Shown here one piece after another: positions 1-61,451 of a stretch of DNA of 64,000 nt. Source of the stretch: a virus; the IMG/VR virus record IMGVR_UViG_3300032668_000017, positions 2,824-66,823 of that record; one strand, 5' to 3'. Position 1 is the first letter of the stretch, and each line of letters starts with the position of its first letter. The notes below the pieces were generated by a model. It worked only from the letters and a program-made list of their open reading frames with translations, made no database searches and was not told the DNA's origin. Both the position numbers and the translations under genes were made by a program.

Positions 1-3000
1 TCTAGCTTAACTGGAGAAATACCTAACATACCGCCAAGCATCTTAGCTGGCTCGCTGGTTGTATCGTAAGCACGTTGGCCGGGTTCTAAAGCTTGTAGGC
101 GCTTGCTTTCAATATCTTGGCCTGTGTACAACGAACGATTCATAGCTAGTTCAATAGGCGCCTTGATAGCTGTTGGCACACCCAGCGGATTAGTCTGTTG
201 TAGAACAGTCTTGATAGCATCTAAACCTTCTCTAGCGGCGTCATCTTGATACGCCATATTCACAAGGGCTTCGGGCATAGCTTTAAATATATAGCCCGCT
301 TCAAACGGAATAGGCAGTCTAAATGCTTCTTTCCCATCCTTGCCAAAGCCCGGCACAAACCAATTCAAATACTTCTGATCAGGCGTAGCGTTCTTATACG
401 CATCGTTATCTTGGTTAGCAATCGCATACAGAATCGACATACCGGCAATCATAGAGCCACGTTTAATCAATTTGTTTTGCAAGTCTAACCGCTTAGCGTA
501 TGGCATTTTGCCGGTAAACGCTTTATACATTACGTTGTAGCCTTGAATCGCTGAGTTAAAGAACGGCACCATTGTGTTAACCCAGTGCATCGAAGGAGAA
601 GCGCCACGAGTATTAAAGTTCATCGACTCCATTGTGGCAATCTGCGCTTCCATATCCGTCAAGCCCTGCTTGCGGAAACTATCATACAGAACTGAGCGAG
701 TAGAAGCATCAGCCTCAGACGCCATCTTATCCATAAACGCCATAGCACCAGATACGCTAGCTTTACCAGACTGTAGTCTTGTGACTATTTGGTTTAAATC
801 CTCAGCACGTCCTGTGTAAACTTCCCCACCCAAAATACCTGACTCTTGCAGATGCTTATTAGTTTCACCAGCACCACGCACAGCATTGTTAACTTCCTTA
901 AGCGATGACAGAATAGGTGTGAAATTAGCCCCTGTTGTCAGCCAAGCGGACATTGGGTCACGAACTAACTGCTTGTAAGCATAGAAAGGATTGCGTGTAA
1001 CGCCCTTACGGAGCCAGTTAGCTGGCACGCCCATCAACCGCACGATACCCGGAAGCTGAGTTGGGATACCTTCCATGCCTTTGACTAGCAAGTTAGGATC
1101 AATGTCGCTAAACTCTGCGTTCTTACTTGTATCAATAACAGCGTGGTAGTCTTTGCCGTTAGCTTTAAAACGGATCACATCAGGGCGGGCTTCGCCTTCG
1201 CCTTTACGAATCTCAGCAATACCTAAGTCTTGTAGGGTTCTAGCTACGCTGGAGGTTGCGTTGTTGCGCAAAGCCATTTCGGTAATCATATTGGTGTTTT
1301 GTACAGACGACTTAAAGAAGTCTTGAATCTTCTGATCACCGCCAACCAACTCATGCAAGTATGGCTGGTCTTTTAATGTACCAATACGAATAGGGGTTTC
1401 AGAACCAATTACCAAATCAACTACACCACCTCGTGAACGATAGTATGGAATATAGTTTTTATTCTTAAACTCGGCGGCCTTCTCTTTAGAGATGTAGCCT
1501 GATTCAGCTAAGCTATCCATCAAGCCGTTGTTATATTTTTGATAGGTTTCAAACGCCTTAACAAAAGCTGGGTCAGCATCGCCTGACTTCTTAGCAGCTT
1601 CTAGCATCTGTGGGGTAATATTAGCGCTAATCTCTCCATCAGCTAATAGCTTTTTGTAACCAACAACTTCCGCACGCTTAGCCGCAGCATAGGCGGTAAA
1701 CATTTCATTGAGCGCTTGTGGGTTGCCCTTTTCAGATTGCAGTAACTCCTGCAATACTTGCTTCATACCGGGACCACCTGACGAACGGATAGTTACTTCG
1801 CCTGTGATTGGGTCTTTAAAGAAAGTACGGGCGCCGTTGACTACAGTCTCGCTAGAAATATTAGTGCGCTGTCCGTGTGCCAGCAAGTTATACATCATCT
1901 GCGAAGCTGGGCCTGTCTCACCCATACGACGCCAAATTTCTTTAAGCGGGGCTAAGCGGTCAATAAACTGCGTATTAAATGCGGCTAAGTTACCTTTCAA
2001 AGACTCTTTAATACCCTTAGGCTGCGCAACAAGTTTGCCGGCCAACTGTGCAAGTGGGTCAGATTCATCAGAGAACTTAGCTTTACGATAGGCCGGCTCT
2101 AAACCAATCTCTCCAGTAGGAAGCTTACCGGCTTCAAATTCTTTCTTAGCACGTTTTATTAACGCGTAGATTTCAGCGTCATTTACGTCCATGTATTTAT
2201 CTAGACCGATACCACGTAACCAATTTCTAAGTGCGCCTACTAACTCTTTAATAAAACGAATAGAACGGTGGATCATTCGAGTATCGGCAGGCTTTTCAGT
2301 AACATGCGCAATCATTTCACGCAAAGAAACTATCATTTCATTCTCAGGAGTTAAATTAGGGTTGTCCCTACGTGCATCACGAATGGCTTTCATCACGTCG
2401 TCAAGCACTCCCATTTCCCTAGCCATGCGAATAATACCGCCATCGTTTTGGGCTTCAATCTTGCGACCTAAATCCACCAATCCTTTTTTACCGAGCAGGC
2501 GGTCTACAGCGTAGTGACCAATAGACTCGTGTGCTAAAGTACTTTGGAAATCTTGCAAGTCTACGTGTTTATCACCAACCGCAACAATAGTGCCGTCTTT
2601 TAATACAGCGCCCTTCATGTCAGCTAAGTTGTTTGCGCCAACTTCTGCTTTAACATAAGCAGGTAAATCTTCTGCTGTATCCGCGTATTCAAACTTCACG
2701 CCCTCGGGCAACTTTTCTCTAAAAGCATCAGCAATTAACTTAGTTCCTTTTACATCAGCAGTGCCTTGTTCATCTTTACCTTTTCTAAATACTAGATTGC
2801 CGTTGTCATCTCTACCAACACGAGGTCCATACTCAGGCTCGTAGTCACGCTCAGACTTAAGGGCTTCTTCAAAATCTTTAGTTACATTTGCTCTACCACT
2901 CTTAAGCGGTTTTAATCTTTCTTTACGTGCAGGTGCATTACCCGCTACCGCTAGCGCACGTTCACCTTTAGCTAATTTCTGTTGCTCAGCTAAATTTTCT

Positions 3001-6000
3001 TTTTCATTCTCAAGCTCTTTAGTAAGCGTATCAACAATACCTTCAAACTTTTTACGTGCTTCTGTCTTAGGGCTAGCAATACGGCGCTTTTTGTCGTTAG
3101 CTTCGATACGCTCTTCAAGGGCTTTAATATACGCTTTAGAATCAGCAATCACATCTTTGCGGTTAGGCTTGTCTAGACCCAACTGTTTGCGGATAGCCTG
3201 CATTTCTCTAGCGCCTTCAGCGCTTTCTTCACGTAACTTAGCACGCTTTTCTTCGGCAGTAAGTGGCGCAGTCTTTTTAACTACACGTTTTTGTAAAATC
3301 TCATCTTTAGTGCCGGGCAATACTACGTTAGTACCAACAACTTCTTGACGAATAGTGGGCTCAGCGGCTTTCTTTTCCAGCATAGCTTGTTCAGCTATAC
3401 GTTTTTCCGTAACACGTTTTTGCAGTTCGGCTTGATTGGCGGCTTCTATTCTGTCAATTTCTCTACTAACTGGAGCGGCCTGTTCTTCAGTAATTTTATT
3501 TTCGGCAAGCGCATCTTTTAACACCTTGCGAGTCATTTGAACAGAACGCTTATTGTTTTCGCCTTCAATAGTAAAGTACTCAACATCACGAGCACGAATA
3601 TCTTCTAAGTATTTTTCGGCTTGCGCTATAGTTTTTTCAAGTTCTTTTACGTATTTTTTGTAGCCTTCTTTAAACTTGCCTTTTTCACCAGCGGCTATTT
3701 CTTCATACTGTTTAATTTTTTCTTTAGTTTGCGCAATATCAAACAAAAGCTTGTACTCTAGTTGTGTACTAAATAAGTTACGTAACTTAGCGCTGCGGTC
3801 CATAGCAGCTTCTTTGTTTTTGGCAAAAGATTCTTCCAAACGAGTTGTTAAACGCTCAATTAACGGAGCTTTCTTTGCCTGTTCTGCTTCCATTCGTGCA
3901 CGATCTTGTGCCGCGGTTGTGCCTTTATCTTTTATTTTTTCTAAAGCAGCTTGCGCCATCTTTATGCTGTGCTGCAACTTATTTCTTTGGATGCCAACAA
4001 ACTTCATAAAGTTAGCTGGGGTAGCGCGCACTGTAGCAATAGGCTCTAACTCTTTAGCACCAAACAAACTGTATTGATCAGGGTTTACACCAGATGGAGC
4101 ATAGCGCTCTTCATCAATTGCTTCTTGTCTAGCCTTTTCTTCTTCCGCTAGTTTTTCTTGCTCTTGAAGTTTTCTTACTTCATTACGTAGTGCTTTAACT
4201 TTTTCAAGATTGGGGTTTTTCTTTTCCAGCTCTGACTTTAACATCTGAGCAGGATCACGTTCCATAGAACTAAAAAACTGCTTTTCACCTTTGACTAAAG
4301 GCTCTCCCTCAGCATATTTTTGTTTAATGCCGGCAAGTTGTTTTTCAATTTGGCTAACGCCTTCTGCAAGAGCGCCTTCTTTTCTAGATTTAGTGTACTG
4401 TGCGCTAAGTTTTTTAAGAGCTGCCGCCTCTTCTCCAGATGTTGCGCCTTTTAATTTAAGGCGTTGCTGCATGTAATCGGGACGTAGTAGTACGGATAAG
4501 TTTTGACTGCTAATAACTTTATCAAGTGAATCTTTTAAATCGTAGGCAAGTTTTAAAGACTCATCTACACTTAATGGTTTTTGTTTTAACGCGGCACGAC
4601 GAGCGTTAATATCACGAATTGCTGCTTCAATATACTGCGCAACATGCCCTTTTGCCTTATCAATCAATCCCGATTTCATAGACTCGGCGGTAGAAGTATC
4701 TACTGCGCCTTCACCCAAATACCGGCCTGTTTTTACGTCTTCAACTGCATCACGCAAGTTATCAATAGCTTCTTGTTGGTCAAGTAATGCTTTATTTCTA
4801 GCATCTTCCGGACGCAGATTTAACTGTTCTTGTAAGTCGTCAAGGCGGTCATGGAGGGCCGCTTCGGACTTTTCGTCGCCGTTGGCTTTTGCTTCTTCAA
4901 TGGCACGTTGAAGTCTTGCAACTCTTAAGTTAGTGGTAGGTTCTTCTTTACCTTGTGCGTTTACTGTGTCAACTAGTCTACCAACTAAATGCTCATCAGT
5001 GTTACCAAAAGTTTTTTCCAACTCAGCCTGTTTAGCTGCGTATGCTTTTTCTTCAGCCGTAGGTTCAAATGCTAGACCTTGCTGTACTGGTGCAGGTGGC
5101 TCCTCTAGTTTTTCACGCTCTGATTTGGCTTTTTCTAGCTTATCTAAAGCCGCTTCAAACTTATCTCTATCAAAAGTTTCGCCACTATATTTTTGTAAAT
5201 CAGCATTATGCTTCTTGATTTGTTTATCAAGCGCATCCATTTTTTCTTTAACTGTTGGCTCAGGTTTTGGCAAAGCCTCAAGTTGTAAATCTGTGGCTTC
5301 TAGTGATTTACGTAGTGTTTCTAAATTGCCTGCCAACGCCCTAGCTGTAGATGTGTCGCCAGTTTGTATAGCCTCTTGAAGTTTAGTTTGTACATCCTCA
5401 ATTTGGCGCTCGACGTTTGGCTTAAATGTGTTTTCAAGCATAAAGCGATGACGTAGCATCTCTTCTCTATCTGCTTGCGCTTTATCTTCCGCAGCTTGTC
5501 TTTCACGAACAGATAATGTACTAGGCGCATTAGGTAGCGGCTTAGCATTTACTGTCTCACCTAACTGCAGTTCGTTTGCTTGACGCAGTCTTTCTTGTTC
5601 GGCTTGCGCAGCTTGCTGTTGCTTTTCTTGTTCTGCTTGAGCAGCTTGTGCACGTTGTGTTTTTAGCGCAGCGAGGCGCCCTTCAATAGTTTGCGGTACT
5701 TCGCCTTCTTCAAGCGGTGGGGGCGTTACTCCCGGACGTTTATTGATTTCATCTAGTTGTTTTTGTAACGCATTAAGCTGCTCTCTACCGGCGTCTCTTT
5801 CTTCTTTAGGTAGCCCTTTGCCTTTAAGAACATCTCGCAAATCTTTCATTTGCTGAAGTATGGGTTCACGTTCTGCCTGTAGTTGCGCTTGACCTTCTGG
5901 GCTAGCGTAGTGCTCGGCCATTACACCGGCTTGTTGTTCTTGTGCTATTTGCTGTCTTTGAGTCTCACCTGTTTTAGCGACATTATCAATTAAAGCTTTA

Positions 6001-6935
6001 GCACGAGCCGGCTGACCAGCGTGCAATAATCCAAAGAACGGAGCAACCAAGCCCATCTGCTTAGCGCCTTCAACATACTGCTTTAATGCTTCTTCGCTAA
6101 ATACATCTTGACCTGCTGAGTATCTTTCGCCGGCTGTGCCGACTGTGGACATCAATGTACCTGCACCAGCAGCTTCGGCTGTGCCTTTTAATACGCTTGA
6201 TAGTCTACCCGAGATTTGGGCTGCGGCGTCTTTAGCCGCAAGTTCTCCACTTAATACTTTAGGTGCTAATAGTTGTGCTTCTTGAGTTGCTGTCTTTAAA
6301 GCAAAGCCTTTCATAGCTCCGCCAACAATCTCACCACCTAAAGAATCAATTGCTGTTTGCGCTAATGCAGGAACCAGCGCTCTGCCATAATCGGGTTGTT
6401 GCCCAGCTTCTTTCTGAGCGGTAATGTCTTCACCAAAATGGATTGGGAAGTTAGCGGCAGCAAAGCCCGCTGTTCCGGCTAAAGCAGTTTCGGGAGCGAG
6501 AAAAGAAGCAGCAGCACCAGCTGCAGCAGGAGCGCCGTACCTACCAGCAAAGCTACCAACAGCTTGTCCGACAGGTTCAGTAATGTATTTGCTAAGTCCT
6601 GTACCCAAGAGTGACGTAATACCTTGGCGTCTAGCCACGTCCATATCTTGTGAAGTAGTTGGTTCATATGCTTGCGCACCTTCTTGTTTGATTTGTTTGC
6701 CGTAGCCGGCTACATCTTCACTACCTACTAAATTACCAAGACCTTCAAGCGCAGAACCAGCGCCTTCTCTAAAACCGGACTTAACTGCTGGAAGTAAACC
6801 TGTTTTCTTTTTATGCTCGGCGTAATCCTCAAACCCTTCAGGGAACTGTTCTTTAGCTAGCTTGAACGCTTGCTCATCAGAAAGTCCACTTGGAACTTCT
6901 ACATACGACCCATTGGGTAGCGGTAAAAACGGCAT
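1..6935 (-). CDS. Giant polyvalent/ejection protein (>2310 aa, C-terminus beyond window) with zincin-like metallopeptidase motif and LPD38-like C-terminal domain
   Basis: ATG at 6935 (MPFLPLPNGSYVEVP). The frame is absent from the ORF track, consistent with no stop before base 1. In-frame TLAHESIGHY at ~2511-2540 and MHWVNTMVPFFNSAIQG at ~540-590. Long Ala/Glu/Lys-rich coiled-coil middle. Confidence 0.85.
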   Translation of the reverse strand, partial: MPFLPLPNGSYVEVPSGLSDEQAFKLAKEQFPEGFEDYAEHKKKTGLLPAVKSGFREGAGSALEGLGNLVGSEDVAGYGKQIKQEGAQAYEPTTSQDMDVARRQGITSLLGTGLSKYITEPVGQAVGSFAGRYGAPAAAGAAASFLAPETALAGTAGFAAANFPIHFGEDITAQKEAGQQPDYGRALVPALAQTAIDSLGGEIVGGAMKGFALKTATQEAQLLAPKVLSGELAAKDAAAQISGRLSSVLKGTAEAAGAGTLMSTVGTAGERYSAGQDVFSEEALKQYVEGAKQMGLVAPFFGLLHAGQPARAKALIDNVAKTGETQRQQIAQEQQAGVMAEHYASPEGQAQLQAEREPILQQMKDLRDVLKGKGLPKEERDAGREQLNALQKQLDEINKRPGVTPPPLEEGEVPQTIEGRLAALKTQRAQAAQAEQEKQQQAAQAEQERLRQANELQLGETVNAKPLPNAPSTLSVRERQAAEDKAQADREEMLRHRFMLENTFKPNVERQIEDVQTKLQEAIQTGDTSTARALAGNLETLRKSLEATDLQLEALPKPEPTVKEKMDALDKQIKKHNADLQKYSGETFDRDKFEAALDKLEKAKSEREKLEEPPAPVQQGLAFEPTAEEKAYAAKQAELEKTFGNTDEHLVGRLVDTVNAQGKEEPTTNLRVARLQRAIEEAKANGDEKSEAALHDRLDDLQEQLNLRPEDARNKALLDQQEAIDNLRDAVEDVKTGRYLGEGAVDTSTAESMKSGLIDKAKGHVAQYIEAAIRDINARRAALKQKPLSVDESLKLAYDLKDSLDKVISSQNLSVLLRPDYMQQRLKLKGATSGEEAAALKKLSAQYTKSRKEGALAEGVSQIEKQLAGIKQKYAEGEPLVKGEKQFFSSMERDPAQMLKSELEKKNPNLEKVKALRNEVRKLQEQEKLAEEEKARQEAIDEERYAPSGVNPDQYSLFGAKELEPIATVRATPANFMKFVGIQRNKLQHSIKMAQAALEKIKDKGTTAAQDRARMEAEQAKKAPLIERLTTRLEESFAKNKEAAMDRSAKLRNLFSTQLEYKLLFDIAQTKEKIKQYEEIAAGEKGKFKEGYKKYVKELEKTIAQAEKYLEDIRARDVEYFTIEGENNKRSVQMTRKVLKDALAENKITEEQAAPVSREIDRIEAANQAELQKRVTEKRIAEQAMLEKKAAEPTIRQEVVGTNVVLPGTKDEILQKRVVKKTAPLTAEEKRAKLREESAEGAREMQAIRKQLGLDKPNRKDVIADSKAYIKALEERIEANDKKRRIASPKTEARKKFEGIVDTLTKELENEKENLAEQQKLAKGERALAVAGNAPARKERLKPLKSGRANVTKDFEEALKSERDYEPEYGPRVGRDDNGNLVFRKGKDEQGTADVKGTKLIADAFREKLPEGVKFEYADTAEDLPAYVKAEVGANNLADMKGAVLKDGTIVAVGDKHVDLQDFQSTLAHESIGHYAVDRLLGKKGLVDLGRKIEAQNDGGIIRMAREMGVLDDVMKAIRDARRDNPNLTPENEMIVSLREMIAHVTEKPADTRMIHRSIRFIKELVGALRNWLRGIGLDKYMDVNDAEIYALIKRAKKEFEAGKLPTGEIGLEPAYRKAKFSDESDPLAQLAGKLVAQPKGIKESLKGNLAAFNTQFIDRLAPLKEIWRRMGETGPASQMMYNLLAHGQRTNISSETVVNGARTFFKDPITGEVTIRSSGGPGMKQVLQELLQSEKGNPQALNEMFTAYAAAKRAEVVGYKKLLADGEISANITPQMLEAAKKSGDADPAFVKAFETYQKYNNGLMDSLAESGYISKEKAAEFKNKNYIPYYRSRGGVVDLVIGSETPIRIGTLKDQPYLHELVGGDQKIQDFFKSSVQNTNMITEMALRNNATSSVARTLQDLGIAEIRKGEGEARPDVIRFKANGKDYHAVIDTSKNAEFSDIDPNLLVKGMEGIPTQLPGIVRLMGVPANWLRKGVTRNPFYAYKQLVRDPMSAWLTTGANFTPILSSLKEVNNAVRGAGETNKHLQESGILGGEVYTGRAEDLNQIVTRLQSGKASVSGAMAFMDKMASEADASTRSVLYDSFRKQGLTDMEAQIATMESMNFNTRGASPSMHWVNTMVPFFNSAIQGYNVMYKAFTGKMPYAKRLDLQNKLIKRGSMIAGMSILYAIANQDNDAYKNATPDQKYLNWFVPGFGKDGKEAFRLPIPFEAGYIFKAMPEALVNMAYQDDAAREGLDAIKTVLQQTNPLGVPTAIKAPIELAMNRSLYTGQDIESKRLQALEPGQRAYDTTSEPAKMLGGMLGISPVKL

Positions 6936-38884: not shown

Positions 38885-39436
38885 CTATTTAAAAGCTGGA
38901 CCTGAAGCCCAGCACGCTGCAGTGTATCGTGTGCCGCTATCAACGGCAGTAACGCGGTGTTCTAATACTGACGGAAAAACTATAATGGTGCCCTTCGGCA
39001 TTTTTTCCGGTAGTAGCGCTATTTTAAATTCAAATACGCCACCTTCATAGCTCTCGGGGTCACTTAAGAACGCTACTGCCGATAGTTTACGCTGTTTTTT
39101 GTCTTTATCGGGCACAAAACTGTCAATATGCCAATCATAATGGCCGCCTGCCTCGTATTTCCCTACCTGAATCTTCTCAAACGAGTCGACATCAAAGTTC
39201 CAACCCGCTTCTTTGTTAGCTAAGCTGGTAAAGGTCTGCATCATGCAACCAAGTGGGGTGTACGGTGTAGTAAAAGTAACTTCCGTCTTTCTAATTTCAT
39301 CATCAACAAACAGATTCTCGTTGTCTTTCGACAGCTCTGCGGCAAATTTATCCTTCCATGGCGCAGTTTTAACCATGTAATCGCATAGAGGAGAGGAAAT
39401 TACGCTTGGATATACCCAAAAAAAGTTATTTAACAT
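38885..39436 (-). CDS. 2OG-Fe(II) oxygenase (prolyl-4-hydroxylase-like)
   Basis: YDWHID, RKLS, YEGG, FPS..EHRV and GTRY motifs. Confidence 0.85.
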   Translation of the reverse strand: MLNNFFWVYPSVISSPLCDYMVKTAPWKDKFAAELSKDNENLFVDDEIRKTEVTFTTPYTPLGCMMQTFTSLANKEAGWNFDVDSFEKIQVGKYEAGGHYDWHIDSFVPDKDKKQRKLSAVAFLSDPESYEGGVFEFKIALLPEKMPKGTIIVFPSVLEHRVTAVDSGTRYTAACWASGPAFK

Positions 39437-40956
39437 CAGTAATACGCCGCCTTTCGTCTGTATTTATAGGTTAAGTCATCTTTTTCATCAGTATCTAAAC
39501 TAACAAACCCACCATTTCTGTACCGCATAAGCGCTTGGCTCACCGTATCCACATAGTCATCATGCTCGCCGACTGGGAACGCTGCTACTTCTTCTATTAC
39601 GTCCTTGGCCCACCGCCTATCTGGAGCCCAGACTATACCTGAAGCGAACAAGTCTGTAATGGAATTAACACGGGCAATTTTATCGTTGCCTCTAGATGGG
39701 TTTGTTTCTTGTACGGGTAGCCCCATCCGTCTAAGTTCTTGTATCAACGGGCCTCCGCTGGCCTTTTTCTCGATTATGAACGCATCAGGCTGCCACTCGT
39801 TATAGTGTTTGAGCGCTACCGCCTTTAGTTCTGGGAATGTCATCCGATCTTTAAAAGCATCTAGCAGGATTAACTGTGGGGCGTTGCCCTCTTCCTCGTT
39901 ATACCAAACACCCCATGTTGTGCAGGCGCTGTAGTCAGATGTTGTCTTTGTTTCAAACGCCGTATCCCAAGACTGAATAATGTATTCGCAAGTGGGTGGG
40001 TCTTCTGCTTCCCAGATTCTCCAGTCGCTTCGTTTTATCAGGGCGCTCGTGTCGCCTGTGGGGTTTTGCATGTACTGGGCGTTCCAGTACCGTGGGTCCA
40101 TCTGAAGACGCTTTGCTTCTAGTTGTTCGAGTGGCCACTGCTCAGGCCAGAGACTTTTACCAGATGGGAGGATGGCCGGCAGTTCTACTACTTCCCATGG
40201 TTCTGCTTCGGGGTTCTGCATCGTAAAATTAACGAGGCGACCTGTTAAATCTACAAGACTCCACCTAGTCATAATTACTATGATCGCACCCCCCGGCATT
40301 AAACGCTGCAACGGACCGGTTTGAAACCAAGACCACGCATTATCAAACGTTGCGCGGCTGTTCGCCTTTATATCCTGTTCAGAATGAGGGTCGTCAATAA
40401 CAAACAAATCAGCGCCCCGCCCAGCGAGAGCGCCCCCGACACCCACAGCATAGTACTGACCGCCAGCGCCAGTAGACCATTTTCCTGCTGCTTTTTGGTC
40501 GTCGGCGACGATGGTGCTTGGGAAGACTTCATGGTATTCCTCACTATCAATTAAGTTCCTCACTCTCCGTCCAAAGTCCTCTGATAAACCCGCGGTATGC
40601 GTGGCCATAATGATTTTCTTATCAGGGTATTTACCTAGAAAGTATGCCGGAAACAGGTAAGACGAAAACTCGGATTTGCCCATCCTTGGTGCAATATTAA
40701 TAATTACCCGCTTTTTCTTGCCTTGAACCACGTCGTCGAATATCTTTGCCAGCTTCTTGTGGTGTGGCCCTACTTTGAATCCCGGGTACACGTACTTGGC
40801 AAACTCGATGGGGTTATCTTGCGCGGACTTTAACTTGTGGCGTCTTTCTTTTTCTTCTAGCTCTTCTAGGAAGGCTAGCTTCTCGGTGACGGTCATGTCC
40901 TTTAGCGCTTTCTGCGCTGCGAATGCTTCTTCTGGGGTTAAAAAATCTAGACTCAT
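39436..40956 (-). CDS. terL: Terminase large subunit
   Basis: Walker A APRMGKS, Walker B FVIDDP, IMTRW, SWDTA, and nuclease motif HDDYVD. Confidence 0.95.
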   Translation of the reverse strand: MSLDFLTPEEAFAAQKALKDMTVTEKLAFLEELEEKERRHKLKSAQDNPIEFAKYVYPGFKVGPHHKKLAKIFDDVVQGKKKRVIINIAPRMGKSEFSSYLFPAYFLGKYPDKKIIMATHTAGLSEDFGRRVRNLIDSEEYHEVFPSTIVADDQKAAGKWSTGAGGQYYAVGVGGALAGRGADLFVIDDPHSEQDIKANSRATFDNAWSWFQTGPLQRLMPGGAIIVIMTRWSLVDLTGRLVNFTMQNPEAEPWEVVELPAILPSGKSLWPEQWPLEQLEAKRLQMDPRYWNAQYMQNPTGDTSALIKRSDWRIWEAEDPPTCEYIIQSWDTAFETKTTSDYSACTTWGVWYNEEEGNAPQLILLDAFKDRMTFPELKAVALKHYNEWQPDAFIIEKKASGGPLIQELRRMGLPVQETNPSRGNDKIARVNSITDLFASGIVWAPDRRWAKDVIEEVAAFPVGEHDDYVDTVSQALMRYRNGGFVSLDTDEKDDLTYKYRRKAAYY

Positions 40957-41600
40957 TCTTCGTCGCGGCTCTCCGCCTTAACCACTTTTTCTACCACTTC
41001 TATCTCTTCGACGTCCGTCACGTCCACCACGCCCATGTACTTCTCTAGCTTTTTCTTAATTTGCTGCTCGAGTTCCTCGTCGCTCATCTCAGTCTTTTTA
41101 ACTTCAACTCGGTCTGTGAACAGCGCTACTTCCGTTACTTTTCCAAGTAACTCCAACGCCTTTAGGCGTATCCGGGCATCCGGATGTTCTGTTTCTTTTA
41201 CTATTTTTGCTACGGACATACTGCGAAGTTCTTGCGCCTGCTCTACAAATTTCCACTGATAGGCCGTCACCATAGACACGGCTGCCTTAACTTCTTCTGG
41301 AACTTCCATCTGTAACAGTTTTTCTTGGGCGTCTGGGTGGGATGTGGTTAAAGCTAGGAAGGCGTCGTTTACCCTGTCCTCTTGCGCTCTTTCCAAGAGC
41401 TCTTCATCTTCGTCGGTAATTTCTTTTAGCCAGTCCGCCGTCTTACTCTGCGCATCTAATGTTTGGGCAGGGCTTGCGTTTTTTATAGGGACAAATAGTT
41501 TCTCGTCCAGAAGAGTTTCTGGAGCAAAATCAGCGGCTGCAGCTGAGACTAAGTGATCTAAGATCAAATCAAATTCCCTATTGGTTGCGTGGGGGTCCAC
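40953..41600 (-). CDS. Probable terminase small subunit
   Basis: Directly upstream of terL; RLKALELLGK motif. Confidence 0.6.
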   Translation of the reverse strand: MDPHATNREFDLILDHLVSAAAADFAPETLLDEKLFVPIKNASPAQTLDAQSKTADWLKEITDEDEELLERAQEDRVNDAFLALTTSHPDAQEKLLQMEVPEEVKAAVSMVTAYQWKFVEQAQELRSMSVAKIVKETEHPDARIRLKALELLGKVTEVALFTDRVEVKKTEMSDEELEQQIKKKLEKYMGVVDVTDVEEIEVVEKVVKAESRDEE

Positions 41601-41631
41601 GATTTTGTCTGATTGTACTAGGTTTTTGTTT

Positions 41632-41661
41632 TTGTGTGTTGTGTTGATTTTTGTTTATACT
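41632..41661 (+). promoter_or_regulatory. Sigma70-like promoter for the candidate sRNA
   Basis: -10 TATACT at 41656-41661; weak -35 TTGTGT at 41632. Confidence 0.5.
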
Positions 41662-41667
41662 TGCCTG

Positions 41668-41747
41668 TACCAGCGCTTTTACTTCTCCTTTCGTTGTGGC
41701 GTTGGTGTGAGGTTTGACCCCGGGCTTAAAACGTCCGGGGTTTTTTT
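41668..41747 (+). ncRNA. Candidate small RNA with anti-Shine-Dalgarno loop
   Basis: Stem ACCAGCGC/GCGTTGGT with loop TTTTACTTCTCCTTTCGTTGTG, then an intrinsic terminator. Confidence 0.65.
41717..41747 (+). terminator. Rho-independent terminator
   Basis: ACCCCGGGC-TTAAAAC-GTCCGGGG followed by T7. Confidence 0.85.
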
Positions 41748-41767
41748 ATGGGCGTAGTTGTCTAAGA

Positions 41768-41850
41768 TTTGACATAGTCCTTGGAATTTTTTACAAAACT
41801 TATACCCCGTTTGACATGCCTCATAGAATTTTTTTACAAAATTTTGACAT
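41768..41850. repeat. Tandem TTTGACAT...GAATTTTTTACAAAA repeats
   Basis: TTTGACAT occurs three times; GAATT(T)4-5ACAAAA occurs twice. Confidence 0.75.
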
Positions 41851-41972
41851 TTTTTGGTTTGCGCCAGCGAAACAGTGTATGGGCGCAGTGGGGTTGGCTA
41901 TGGCAAAACGGCTTGGTGGGGGTAGGGTGGGGTCAGAATAGGCTGAATTGATACTAGGGATAGTAGCCCATT

Positions 41973-41981
41973 TGGTATAAT
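41973..41981 (+). promoter_or_regulatory. Extended -10 early promoter
   Basis: TGGTATAAT ~55 nt upstream of the first early ATG (42035). Confidence 0.7.
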
Positions 41982-42034
41982 AGAGGTATCGAGTGAGGGA
42001 TTCCCCAAGCCGATACACAACAAAGGAGTTTCAA

Positions 42035-42451
42035 ATGCAACAGTTCAATTCATACCTCAAAGCAGTCGAGCAACACATCGAGTCAGGTTTCAATCTTGGT
42101 GATGCAATGGCTAAGTTCCTGCCTGTATTCAATACGGCTAAGCCCACGCAACAGTTGGAGATGCGTAGTGCAGTCGCAAGGCTTATCAGTATCAAGAAGA
42201 AGGTGGCTACGATTGAAATAAATAAAGGGGCTTTCGCTGGCTCACAAGGCTTTCAGGCTAAGCACAAGGGTGGCACAGACGCAACGGAGAGAGCAAGAGT
42301 CATGCTCAAATACTATATGCCACAAAGCAACAAGGTGGAGAAAACCTCCACCAAACCAAAAGCAAAGCCAAGCCCAGTTGCTAAACTACTTACACAGTTC
42401 AAATCCCTCACGCCAGCACAGCGCAAAGCGTTTTTGTCAGAAGTTCTGTGA
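42035..42451 (+). CDS. First early protein, hypothetical
   Basis: AAAGGAG SD before ATG 42035. Confidence 0.7.
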   Translation: MQQFNSYLKAVEQHIESGFNLGDAMAKFLPVFNTAKPTQQLEMRSAVARLISIKKKVATIEINKGAFAGSQGFQAKHKGGTDATERARVMLKYYMPQSNKVEKTSTKPKAKPSPVAKLLTQFKSLTPAQRKAFLSEVL

Positions 42452-42512
42452 TCGGGCGAGGAAGCGAGGCTTCTACGCAGTTCGTTTTTATGTCAAACCA
42501 AAGGAGAATGTT

Positions 42513-42701
42513 ATGTCAGTAGCAAAAGATATTATCAAAGTAGTTAAGCAAGACCCACTCGGTGAAGCGTTCCTAGTGGAGGCGATGCGTCGCTACGCTA
42601 AAGATGTATTGCAAGACAACACCGATTGGGGCAACTCAATCATCAGCAAAGAAGCGTGGCAACACATTGCACAACAAGTTGTATTCGAGTTAAACATCTA
42701 A
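42513..42701 (+). CDS. Hypothetical early protein
   Basis: AAAGGAGAA SD before ATG 42513. Confidence 0.65.
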   Translation: MSVAKDIIKVVKQDPLGEAFLVEAMRRYAKDVLQDNTDWGNSIISKEAWQHIAQQVVFELNI

Positions 42702-45590: not shown

Positions 45591-45629
45591 CAACAGGTGG
45601 AGAAACCCTCCACCACGAAAGGAGAAAGT

Positions 45630-46322
45630 ATGGAAACCATAGTAGAACCACAGACCTACACTATCCAACAACTTATAGAACTAGAGCAAGACGAAGCGTT
45701 AGAGAGGATCAGGCATTGGTGGCAAGAGCATGGCGCAGAGCATGATTGGTGGGACTATATCTACGATGATGCCAAGAGTGAGGGCTATCAACTAGGCTTT
45801 GTTATCAACGACATAAACTTTACAGGCTTTTACTCACAAGGTGATGGCGCTTGTTGGGAAGGACAAGTTGATTTAGCTCAATGGCTCAAGACGCATACCG
45901 AGGACAGTATAGGTAGAGAAGCATGGCTTACTTTGATACGAGAAGAATACTGCGACAAGCATTTAGGTGTTAGCTTTAGCGGTAGGTATTCACACAGCAA
46001 CACCATGCGCTGTAATGGTTTAGATTGGGTAGATGATATTGATGGGTTCGGTATCAGAGATGAAGATGCGTTCCTCAAAGGCGACAGTATCTTTAATGGT
46101 ATGCGATACACAGACCTACACAACATCATCAGATCATCAGGCTTTCCATACACAGACCCTAACGATTTAGAAGAAGCCATGTTCGAGAGTGCTAAAGACT
46201 ACGCTGATGATATATACAGACGACTTAGGAAAGAATACGAATACATCATGAGCGACGAGAACCTGATTGAGATGTGCAGTATCAACGAGTGGAAGTTTAA
46301 CAAAGAAGGAGAGATGGTATGA
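45630..46322 (+). CDS. Acidic hypothetical phage protein
   Basis: FTGFYSQGDGA...LRKEYEY motif; GAAAGGAG SD. Confidence 0.7.
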   Translation: METIVEPQTYTIQQLIELEQDEALERIRHWWQEHGAEHDWWDYIYDDAKSEGYQLGFVINDINFTGFYSQGDGACWEGQVDLAQWLKTHTEDSIGREAWLTLIREEYCDKHLGVSFSGRYSHSNTMRCNGLDWVDDIDGFGIRDEDAFLKGDSIFNGMRYTDLHNIIRSSGFPYTDPNDLEEAMFESAKDYADDIYRRLRKEYEYIMSDENLIEMCSINEWKFNKEGEMV

Positions 46323-50499: not shown

Positions 50500-50518
50500 A
50501 CAACAAAGGAGAATTACT

Positions 50519-52022: not shown

Positions 52023-52232
52023 GTGTCAGAAATAACAGTAACCCACGCCGAGATACGCAAGGCTCATGAAAAACTTATGGAGAGAAAGTATTGTTCTTCA
52101 TGTCATGCGTATAAAATGATAGACGGCGGTAAAGATGTGCCGTATGCAAACGGCAAAAGAACTCGGTGGCAATGCCTTAATTGCCACAAAAAGATAAGTG
52201 AACGGAAGTATCAATCTAAAAAGGAGAAGTAA
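52023..52232 (+). CDS. Zinc-ribbon protein
   Basis: CSSC...CLNC; GTG start with GAAAGGA SD. Confidence 0.6.
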   Translation: MSEITVTHAEIRKAHEKLMERKYCSSCHAYKMIDGGKDVPYANGKRTRWQCLNCHKKISERKYQSKKEK

Positions 52233-52233
52233 A

Positions 52234-52503
52234 ATGTTACAAGAATTAAATCTGTGGGAATTAAGTTGTGAAATTGAAACTGTTAGCTACAAGTTAGATA
52301 GCGTTAAAAATGTGGTAGAGATTCTAGCTGAGCGTGAGATTCACGAGCCCGAGAGCGGTGCGTTGTGGGCGGTGCTTGAGATGCTAGAAGTTCAAACACA
52401 AAAGCTCGAGGCATTGGCGGGTGAAGCTATGAATTTGCACAGAGAAACCTTACCTAAAGAAAAACCAGCGCCAGCACCAGCCAAAAAGGAGAAGAAGAAA
52501 TGA
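52234..52503 (+). CDS. Hypothetical helical protein
   Basis: AAAGGAGAAGT SD region before ATG 52234. Confidence 0.65.
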   Translation: MLQELNLWELSCEIETVSYKLDSVKNVVEILAEREIHEPESGALWAVLEMLEVQTQKLEALAGEAMNLHRETLPKEKPAPAPAKKEKKK

Positions 52504-54697: not shown

Positions 54698-54977
54698 AAT
54701 CCTTAAACAGTTTGGCGCCTACTATTTCTATCCTGTAATGGGCGGTTATGGTCGTTCGGGTATACCTGACATTATCGCTTGTTACAAAGGCCGGTTTATT
54801 GCGATAGAATGTAAGGCTGGTAAGAACACACTAACCGCACTACAAGAAGCAGAACTAAAGAAGATTGAAGAGGCAAAAGGTTATGTGCTGGTGGTCAACG
54901 AAGAAAACATCGACTTCGTAGATGGCGCTTTGCAAACGATGGAATGGATTGAACAACACAACGAAAGAAACGAATGA
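54654..54977 (+). CDS. VRR-NUC domain nuclease
   Basis: TPEKKVK...GIPDI...IECKA...Q motif. Confidence 0.85.
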   Translation: MAQTPEKKVKDAVTKILKQFGAYYFYPVMGGYGRSGIPDIIACYKGRFIAIECKAGKNTLTALQEAELKKIEEAKGYVLVVNEENIDFVDGALQTMEWIEQHNERNE

Positions 54978-59190: not shown

Positions 59191-59214
59191 TACTGGCAAC
59201 AACGAAAGGAAAAT

Positions 59215-61371: not shown

Positions 61372-61451
61372 AAAGAAAACCCTAGTTTGGGTTGTATTGT
61401 TGCCTCTATTGTTGTAAAGTATTTGACATAGACATTGAAAGGAGAAACGAG

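Follow-up and report, generated by a model that had tools for sequence, protein, structure and literature searches.

The stretch of viral DNA studied here, called the window throughout, is 64,000 nucleotides (nt) long and comprises bases 2824-66823 of a 66,823-bp virus record (IMG/VR IMGVR_UViG_3300032668_000017) that has direct terminal repeats and is rated complete. Genes to the left of about 41600 on the - strand make up the packaging and structural (late) operon, including the gene for the large terminase, terL (39436-40956, a Terminase_6C family match). Genes to the right of 42035 on the + strand include a family-A DNA polymerase, a helicase and an ATPase, by which this rightward module is recognised as that of replication (early/middle). 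In the divergent gap between the leftward packaging operon and the rightward replication module, on the + strand, lies a short locus with the features listed below, and we consider it very probable that it encodes a real small RNA (sRNA) of a new, covariation-supported phage family.

41656-41661, + strand: -10 box TATACT of the sRNA, with TAnAnT conserved in relatives
41668-41749, + strand: predicted sRNA of about 82 nt, its ends read from the sequence
41669-41706, + strand: stem-loop 1, an 8-bp stem with a 22-nt CU-rich loop, showing covariation and matching the covariance model R1 (below)
41707-41715, + strand: single-stranded linker with GTGAG, partly conserved in close relatives
41716-41749, + strand: intrinsic terminator, a hairpin at 41716-41742 (10 pairs, 7 of them G-C) followed by seven T

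The stem is formed by the arms ACCAGCGC (41669-41676) and GCGTTGGT (41699-41706), which pair with one G.U pair, and the 22-nt loop between them, TTTTACTTCTCCTTTCGTTGTG (41677-41698), contains the anti-Shine-Dalgarno (anti-SD) core CTCCTTTC. The original prediction for this DNA had named the TATACT box, the 8-bp stem, the 22-nt loop and the terminator, and all four are present at the places it gave. The RNA from 41668 to 41750 folds to -33.7 kcal/mol, compared with -20.0 +/- 2.9 kcal/mol in 200 dinucleotide shuffles, none of which folded as low (z = -4.75).

Conservation of the unit and covariation of its stem

Related viral contigs, 67 in all, were gathered using the protein of the putative terS gene, which overlaps terL, as an anchor. 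A covariance model of the hairpin alone (R1) was built from 12 sequences and used with a cut-off of E <= 0.05. In the window R1 gives one match (46.4 bits, E 1.5e-10). Matches were obtained at 46 of the 67 loci, and in all 46 the hairpin is opposite in strand to terS and immediately upstream of it. The 21 R1-negative loci comprise eight that lack upstream DNA, 11 in which a variant is discernible by eye, with a CU-rich motif in or beside a hairpin plus a terminator, and two (L045 and L046) that are without the unit. A further motif scan, in which viral contigs were compared with a 14-base pattern of the loop, returned at least 120 stretches, mostly chance matches; among the matches listed (80 loci), eight were R1-positive, two of them on contigs already in the set. 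Among the same listed matches, the R1-positive loci L141 and L117 have an adjacent terS homolog and L113 has none.

The TAnAnT box is invariant in 20 of 20 aligned relatives and is found in 44 of the 46 R1-positive loci, where its distance from the stem is 6 nt (28 loci), 7 nt (15 loci) or 9 nt (one locus). The two loci that miss it are L027, which has TACTAT instead, and L038, a partial R1 match. In three groups of relatives the TATACT region has been swapped for a different, duplicated module that restores TACAAT at the same distance, which suggests that promoter function is what is kept. L002, L005-L008 and L057/L058 have, in place of the TATACT region, an 11-nt unit (CTTTACAATCC, sRNA strand) in two copies, which looks like a swapped promoter module. 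A terminator, defined as a G+C-rich hairpin followed by at least six T in eight within 110 nt, is present in 46 of 46 R1-positive loci, and its stem sequences vary between relatives. The predicted RNA length in relatives, from the start of the stem to the end of the U-tract, is 80-103 nt.

Base pairs were counted on a model-derived alignment of 25 distinct rows and 171 cells, which is fitted to the R1 structure and favours that structure; the same exchanges between the stem arms are visible in the raw sequences. Two MAFFT alignments misplaced the 3' arm between the two loop types described below and were excluded from the counts. Standard pairs occupy 97.1% of the 171 cells when read on the + strand and 88.3% when read on the - strand. 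Both sides have changed in six of the eight stem pairs (35 cells), with up to five pair types per position. The covariation score was 0.489, against 0.176 in shuffled alignments (0/500 as high) and at most 0.039 with the partners slid. By type, 149 cells are Watson-Crick, 17 are G.U, 2 are A.C and 3 are other. Three independent signals, namely the excess of G.U over A.C (17 versus 2), the U-tract and the -10 box, thus point to an RNA on the + strand. As far as aligned sequences can tell, its structure is kept by compensatory changes on that transcribed (+) strand. The description of the locus as a self-contained unit of about 80 nt is accordingly backed, on the + strand, by conservation and covariation in relatives, both of which had been proposed as a check in terS-upstream regions.

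Loop identity and pairing with start regions

Ten loci share the 22-nt loop of the window without a single change, although the stems that carry it read ACCAGCGC, ACCGGTGG, ACCGGCGG or ACCGGCG. The exact 22-mer occurs in 15 viral contigs, with one copy in each, and in none of the bacterial genome contigs, where the search was for the exact 22-mer only. In more distant relatives the loop is of another type, TTTT(N)CTCCTTCGTTTGG, and in many of them a second hairpin takes the place of the linker, together with one or two further TCCTT/CCTCC motifs before the terminator. Judged from these comparisons, the loop is under strong constraint.

The reverse complement of the loop recurs at ribosome-binding sites (RBSs) of the window, and the RBS matches that the original prediction had listed are all present. 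They measure 15 nt at 52220-52234, 12 nt at 45615-45626 and 59199-59210, 11 nt at 54957-54967, 10 nt at 61437-61446, and 9 nt at 42500-42508 and 50505-50513. Exact matches of at least 9 nt number 17 on the + strand, 11 of them directly before a start codon, and three on the - strand, one of which is the sRNA locus itself. The leading predicted pairing sites are as follows (gene lengths in amino acids, aa).

45615-45632, + strand: best predicted pairing site, in the start region of a 230-aa gene, -23.4 kcal/mol
52220-52236, + strand: predicted pairing site with 15 nt of exact complementarity, in the start region of a gene for 89 aa
59199-59217, + strand: predicted pairing site with 12 nt of exact complementarity, in the start region of a gene for 90 aa

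Targeting was tested in the window and in four complete relatives (G001-G004). In the window, a duplex energy with the phage's own loop of -12 kcal/mol or better was reached by 25 of 62 early-strand sites and 9 of 60 late-strand sites (p = 0.0035), and among sites that contain GGAG the early ones averaged -14.2 and the late ones -10.3 kcal/mol (one-sided p = 0.001). For GGAG-containing sites the early strand was better than the late in five of five genomes (pooled, 97 early sites at -13.9 and 64 late sites at -10.6 kcal/mol). Among the 12 sites that pair best, 10-11 are on the early strand in the window, in G001 and in G003, and 8 or 9 in G002 and G004; several of them belong to orthologous genes. 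This early versus late difference tracks the composition of the flanks, the early SD flanks having more A and C and less T. Complements of 14-16 nt to the phage's own loop also stand at early start sites in L035 and L053.

Two side observations concern these start regions. An early start region at L035 865-889 folds on itself as a hairpin, its GGAGAAAG being paired with a CTTCTCC that lies upstream; the loop of this hairpin together with the SD gives a 16-nt complement to the sRNA loop of the same phage. In close relatives, the start region of the first rightward gene holds CACAACGAAAGGA, a 13-nt complement to the sRNA loop.

Two further candidates were tried and rejected. The terS leader is not a dedicated target, since its pairing with the loop is unremarkable (-7.6 to -15.5 kcal/mol, z -0.4 to -3.7, 25 loci). 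Co-variation of loop and RBS between the two loop types showed the expected trend, as did the cross-genome energies, and was not significant.

Comparison with known RNAs

At gathering thresholds, Rfam 15 has no match in the window, and in E-value mode it gives only sub-threshold sRNA matches. The Betaproteobacteria toxic sRNA family RF02278 scores 21.5 bits in the window and 19.9 bits in the relative L043 (threshold 50), and the anti-hemB family RF02837 scores 20.6 and 17.3 bits (threshold 49.5). These scores are far below the thresholds and place the sRNA in a new family outside RF02278 and RF02837. Both models nevertheless align end to end with it, and its CU-rich motif falls on their CU-rich positions. 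The earlier statement that no family had been described holds for the RNA itself and not for its kind, since CU-rich anti-RBS sRNAs are known in bacteria.

In the accessible text of PMC5688073, the double-hairpin RNAs of Burkholderia are described as short, with unpaired CU-rich stretches reverse-complementary to RBSs; start regions account for 55-80% of the interactions predicted for them, and their overexpression slows growth. The same text states that these bacterial sRNAs regulate cellular metabolism genes, and names Neisseria NmsR as similar. The phage sRNA resembles the RF02278 RNAs in being short (57-92 nt for the four homologues tabulated in PMC5688073) and in having two hairpins, a 5' hairpin and a second that is the terminator, with a CU-rich unpaired stretch complementary to RBSs. 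Unlike RF02278 and RF02837, it is phage-borne, is found once per contig, always in the same place opposite terS, and has its own, longer loop. The RF02278 RNAs, in contrast, are chromosomal, with several homologous copies per bacterial genome, whereas R1 finds one match in the window. The closest known kind is the CU-rich anti-RBS double-hairpin sRNAs of Betaproteobacteria, and by analogy the phage sRNA would work as they do. An own promoter and an own terminator, the general mark of trans-acting sRNAs, are represented here by the -10 box (44/46) and the terminator (46/46).

Among phage RNAs, P22 sar is an antisense anti-RBS RNA encoded directly opposite its target. The c4 RNA of P1/P7 pairs around one RBS, according to the accessible part of PMC12197685. 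Both resemble the phage sRNA in being small phage RNAs whose loop sequences pair around an RBS and block translation, which for the present RNA is a prediction. They differ from it in that each has one dedicated target in a temperate-phage immunity region, while the phage sRNA has many predicted sites. A cis-antisense layout of the sar type was not found, since on the - strand of the window the SD-like sequence is not followed by an ATG, GTG or TTG at a distance of 4-12 nt. A small open reading frame (ORF) behind that SD-like sequence was rejected as well; it has no conserved start, and the TTG present in some relatives only would open a frame of nine codons.

The endoribonuclease RegB of phage T4 inactivates early mRNAs through their GGAG Shine-Dalgarno sequences. 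The phage sRNA would be similar as a phage factor that silences early mRNAs through their SDs, an analogy that depends on the timing and targets proposed for it below, and it differs in that RegB is a protein nuclease and not an RNA. No packaging RNA family of the phi29 type appeared in Rfam at gathering thresholds, or up to E = 10 over 41560-41860. A literature search that left out supplementary files found no description of a phage RNA of this kind.

Flanking genes and nearby promoters

The neighbouring features that bear on the setting of the sRNA are the following.

40953-41567, - strand: putative terS, 204 aa, overlapping terL and named by position only
41612-41617, - strand: -10-like box TACAAT, about 45 nt before the putative terS start, a putative promoter element
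41768-41850, + strand: downstream of the sRNA terminator, three tandem TTTGACAT boxes, of which two have TACAAA 17-18 nt further on

The terS label is positional because the 204-aa product matches no Pfam or PHROG family. In all relatives displayed, an ATG, GTG or TTG stands at the position of window 41567, and relatives such as L004, L009, L013, L040, L043 and L055 carry in-frame stops between the two candidate starts. By this comparison the conserved terS start is TTG 41567 and not GTG 41600 of the ORF list. The 33 nt between 41567 and 41600 are part of a conserved leader (…ACGCAACCAA[A/T]AGGG…) with an SD-like AGGG(G)A. A near-leaderless terS, which was considered as a candidate, was rejected on account of the conserved downstream TTG and the leader that precedes it.

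On the terS side, a box of the TAnAnT type occurs at the same place in the displayed upstream regions of relatives. The sRNA -10 box and this opposite-strand -10-like box stand back-to-back, 38 bp apart in the window and about 21 bp apart in relatives of the L016 type, with an A/T-rich spacer and no conserved -35. Promoters in such a position might compete or be co-activated.

The composite pattern of TTTGACAT and TACAAA has two matches, with 0.02 expected, and from its sequence the TTTGACAT cluster probably consists of early promoters. An extended -10, TGGTATAAT, lies at 41973-41981, 54 nt before the first rightward gene, and in relatives the same pattern, TGTCAAA…TTTTGTAAAAA, is met again on the opposite strand. 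The first rightward gene of the window (42035, 138 aa, no family match) is the first divergent gene in relatives too (L063 1722-2168, L012 1401-1814).

A small ORF of 42-44 aa is present on the terS strand in several relatives (L055 2696-2830, L012 2734-2862, and also L005, L028, L035, L038, L040, L056 and L057). It runs towards the sRNA and has its end at the terminator hairpin, which the two share, and in several relatives its C-terminus reads …FW.D…AD.LK.YKTK. It is absent from the window, and L063 has only a remnant. An open frame of more than 2311 aa occupies 3-6935 (-) of the window and continues beyond its left edge.

By terL, the closest isolated phages (47-54% identity) are the Pelagibacter phages HTVC027P and HTVC023P, DSL-LC04, 023Pt_psg01 and a Synechococcus/Planktothrix phage group; blastn of 41000-42500 against isolated phages gave no DNA similarity. 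In DSL-LC04, 023Pt_psg01 and HTVC027P, tblastn found no terS homolog, and inspection of the upstream regions, to which the R1 model was not applied, found no evident sRNA unit. The phage DNA occurs in lake and freshwater metagenomes (24 of 24 DNA runs).

Discussion

From the sequence, the most likely mode of action of this RNA is pairing of its loop with ribosome-binding regions. We propose that an sRNA of about 82 nt would be transcribed independently from its own -10 element and ended by its own intrinsic terminator, and that its 5' hairpin would display the 22-nt pyrimidine-rich loop with the anti-SD core. The loop would pair with purine-rich ribosome-binding regions and block 30S binding. 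In distant relatives, the one or two further CU-rich single-stranded motifs may add to the repression. The targets, taken as a class, would be the start regions in the rightward replication (early/middle) module of the phage itself, where the A/C-rich SD flanks of early sites would suit the U/G-rich flanks of the loop better than late-gene sites do. The sRNA promoter is without the TTGACAT box of the early cluster and lies back-to-back with the -10-like box of the packaging operon, from which late co-firing may follow; the sRNA would then fire together with the late genes and help to shut off the earlier module. Such targeting of the replication module as a class, with its timing tied to the late operon, is the best specific model that the sequences offer, and we hold it tentatively, doubting it somewhat more than we believe it. 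In a bolder form, which seems to us unlikely as a whole, the RNA would be the master anti-SD riboregulator of a virulent phage. It would cover the RBSs of the whole replication module and perhaps host mRNAs from a promoter back-to-back with the late operon. It would thus drive the switch from early to late genes as T4 RegB's counterpart in RNA form, and a clade of abundant lake phages would have conserved it.

Several results weigh against the targeting model and its promoter. The gene calls used in the targeting tests were heuristic and include some spurious ORFs, and the five genomes are related, so that pooled p-values overstate their independence. The early strand is A-rich overall, and a U/G-rich loop therefore pairs better with it by composition alone. 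When the loop flanks were permuted with the anti-SD core held fixed, 23.6% of 259 loops matched or beat the native top-10 mean energy in the window, as did 24% in G001 and 32% in G002 (not significant). The corresponding shares in G003 and G004 were 1.2% and 3.5%, and nominal significance (p < 0.05) was reached in only two of the five genomes. Own-type versus other-type motifs at early start sites stood at 10:2 versus 2:3, which is the expected direction and not significant (Fisher p = 0.12). The anti-SD core would pair with late and host SDs too, which leaves specificity unexplained, and the invariance of all 22 nt exceeds what many-target pairing needs and hints at a further partner. A strict two-hexamer sigma-70 scan of 40800-42600 found no promoter, and no -35 is conserved among relatives; because that scan was negative, the support for an sRNA promoter is the -10 box by itself.

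The original prediction of a multi-target repressor of early genes stands, in the light of these results, in its anti-SD core and in the better pairing of early than of late sites. The part that held complementarity beyond the SD core to be special is not supported by the permuted-flank results. The comparisons it had suggested divided in the same way: early sites outscored late ones, native loops equalled the core-fixed permuted controls in three of five genomes, and co-evolution of loop and RBS did not reach significance.

The alternative that survives best accepts a real anti-SD sRNA whose targets are host mRNAs or one specific conserved partner, the early phage matches being a by-product of a shared SD dialect. 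We think this rather improbable. That permuted-flank loops equal the native loop on phage sites in three of five genomes speaks for it, and the invariance of the 22-nt loop suggests a single partner with exacting demands. In bacteria, sRNAs built in this way regulate cellular metabolism genes (accessible text of PMC5688073). The best phage sites, however, carry exact complements of 12-16 nt, and for a single partner the nearest candidate, the adjacent terS leader, pairs unremarkably in 25 loci.

A still less probable explanation is that the RNA is a decoy or binds a protein, for example as a mimic of the 16S 3' tail that occupies a factor recognising that tail or pyrimidine-rich RNA. This would be in keeping with a loop that is invariant throughout and not just in its core, and with the CU-rich motifs that are repeated two or three times in distant relatives, although multiple CU-rich motifs are, in the accessible text of PMC5688073, typical of pairing sRNAs as well.

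It is very improbable that the functional strand is that of terS, with a purine-rich, SD-like hairpin loop in a long leader serving as mRNA stabiliser, ribosome standby site or GGA-loop protein-binding site, and the leader perhaps made by read-through from the small ORF of some relatives. On that strand the loop does have the sequence of a strong SD, which no start codon follows, and the 42-44-aa ORF of relatives ends at the hairpin. That strand would, however, have 17 A.C mismatches where the + strand has G.U pairs, its hairpin has no U-tract, the conserved TAnAnT box is readable only on the + strand, and the -10-like box for terS sits downstream of the element. The poorest candidate, a DNA-level element (a packaging recognition site by the terminase genes, or a promoter/terminator pair that insulates the divergent modules, with an RNA product of no role), would suit the invariant core and the constant position immediately upstream of the putative terS, but compensatory changes with G.U intermediates are an RNA signature, an insulator does not need an invariant loop, and the binding of a protein to DNA calls for neither a covarying inverted repeat nor a promoter or terminator.

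Conclusions

The covering of RBSs by a CU-rich loop is known in bacteria; what is new is an RNA that looks built for it in this kind of phage, where it has not been described. As far as the accessible parts of the literature indicate, regulatory RNAs of lytic, uncultured phages are almost unknown, and the phage sRNAs described so far are mostly those of enteric prophages. For the present family, support was obtained without culture from four independent signals in the sequence, namely the promoter box, the covarying stem, the strand-specific wobble pairs and the terminator, and the family provides a new covariance model for the annotation of viral metagenomes. With its readable seed, the sRNA is a concrete, testable case of RNA-based translational control in a phage gene-expression programme. 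If the class-level targeting of the replication module is true, one small RNA can time a whole phage regulon.
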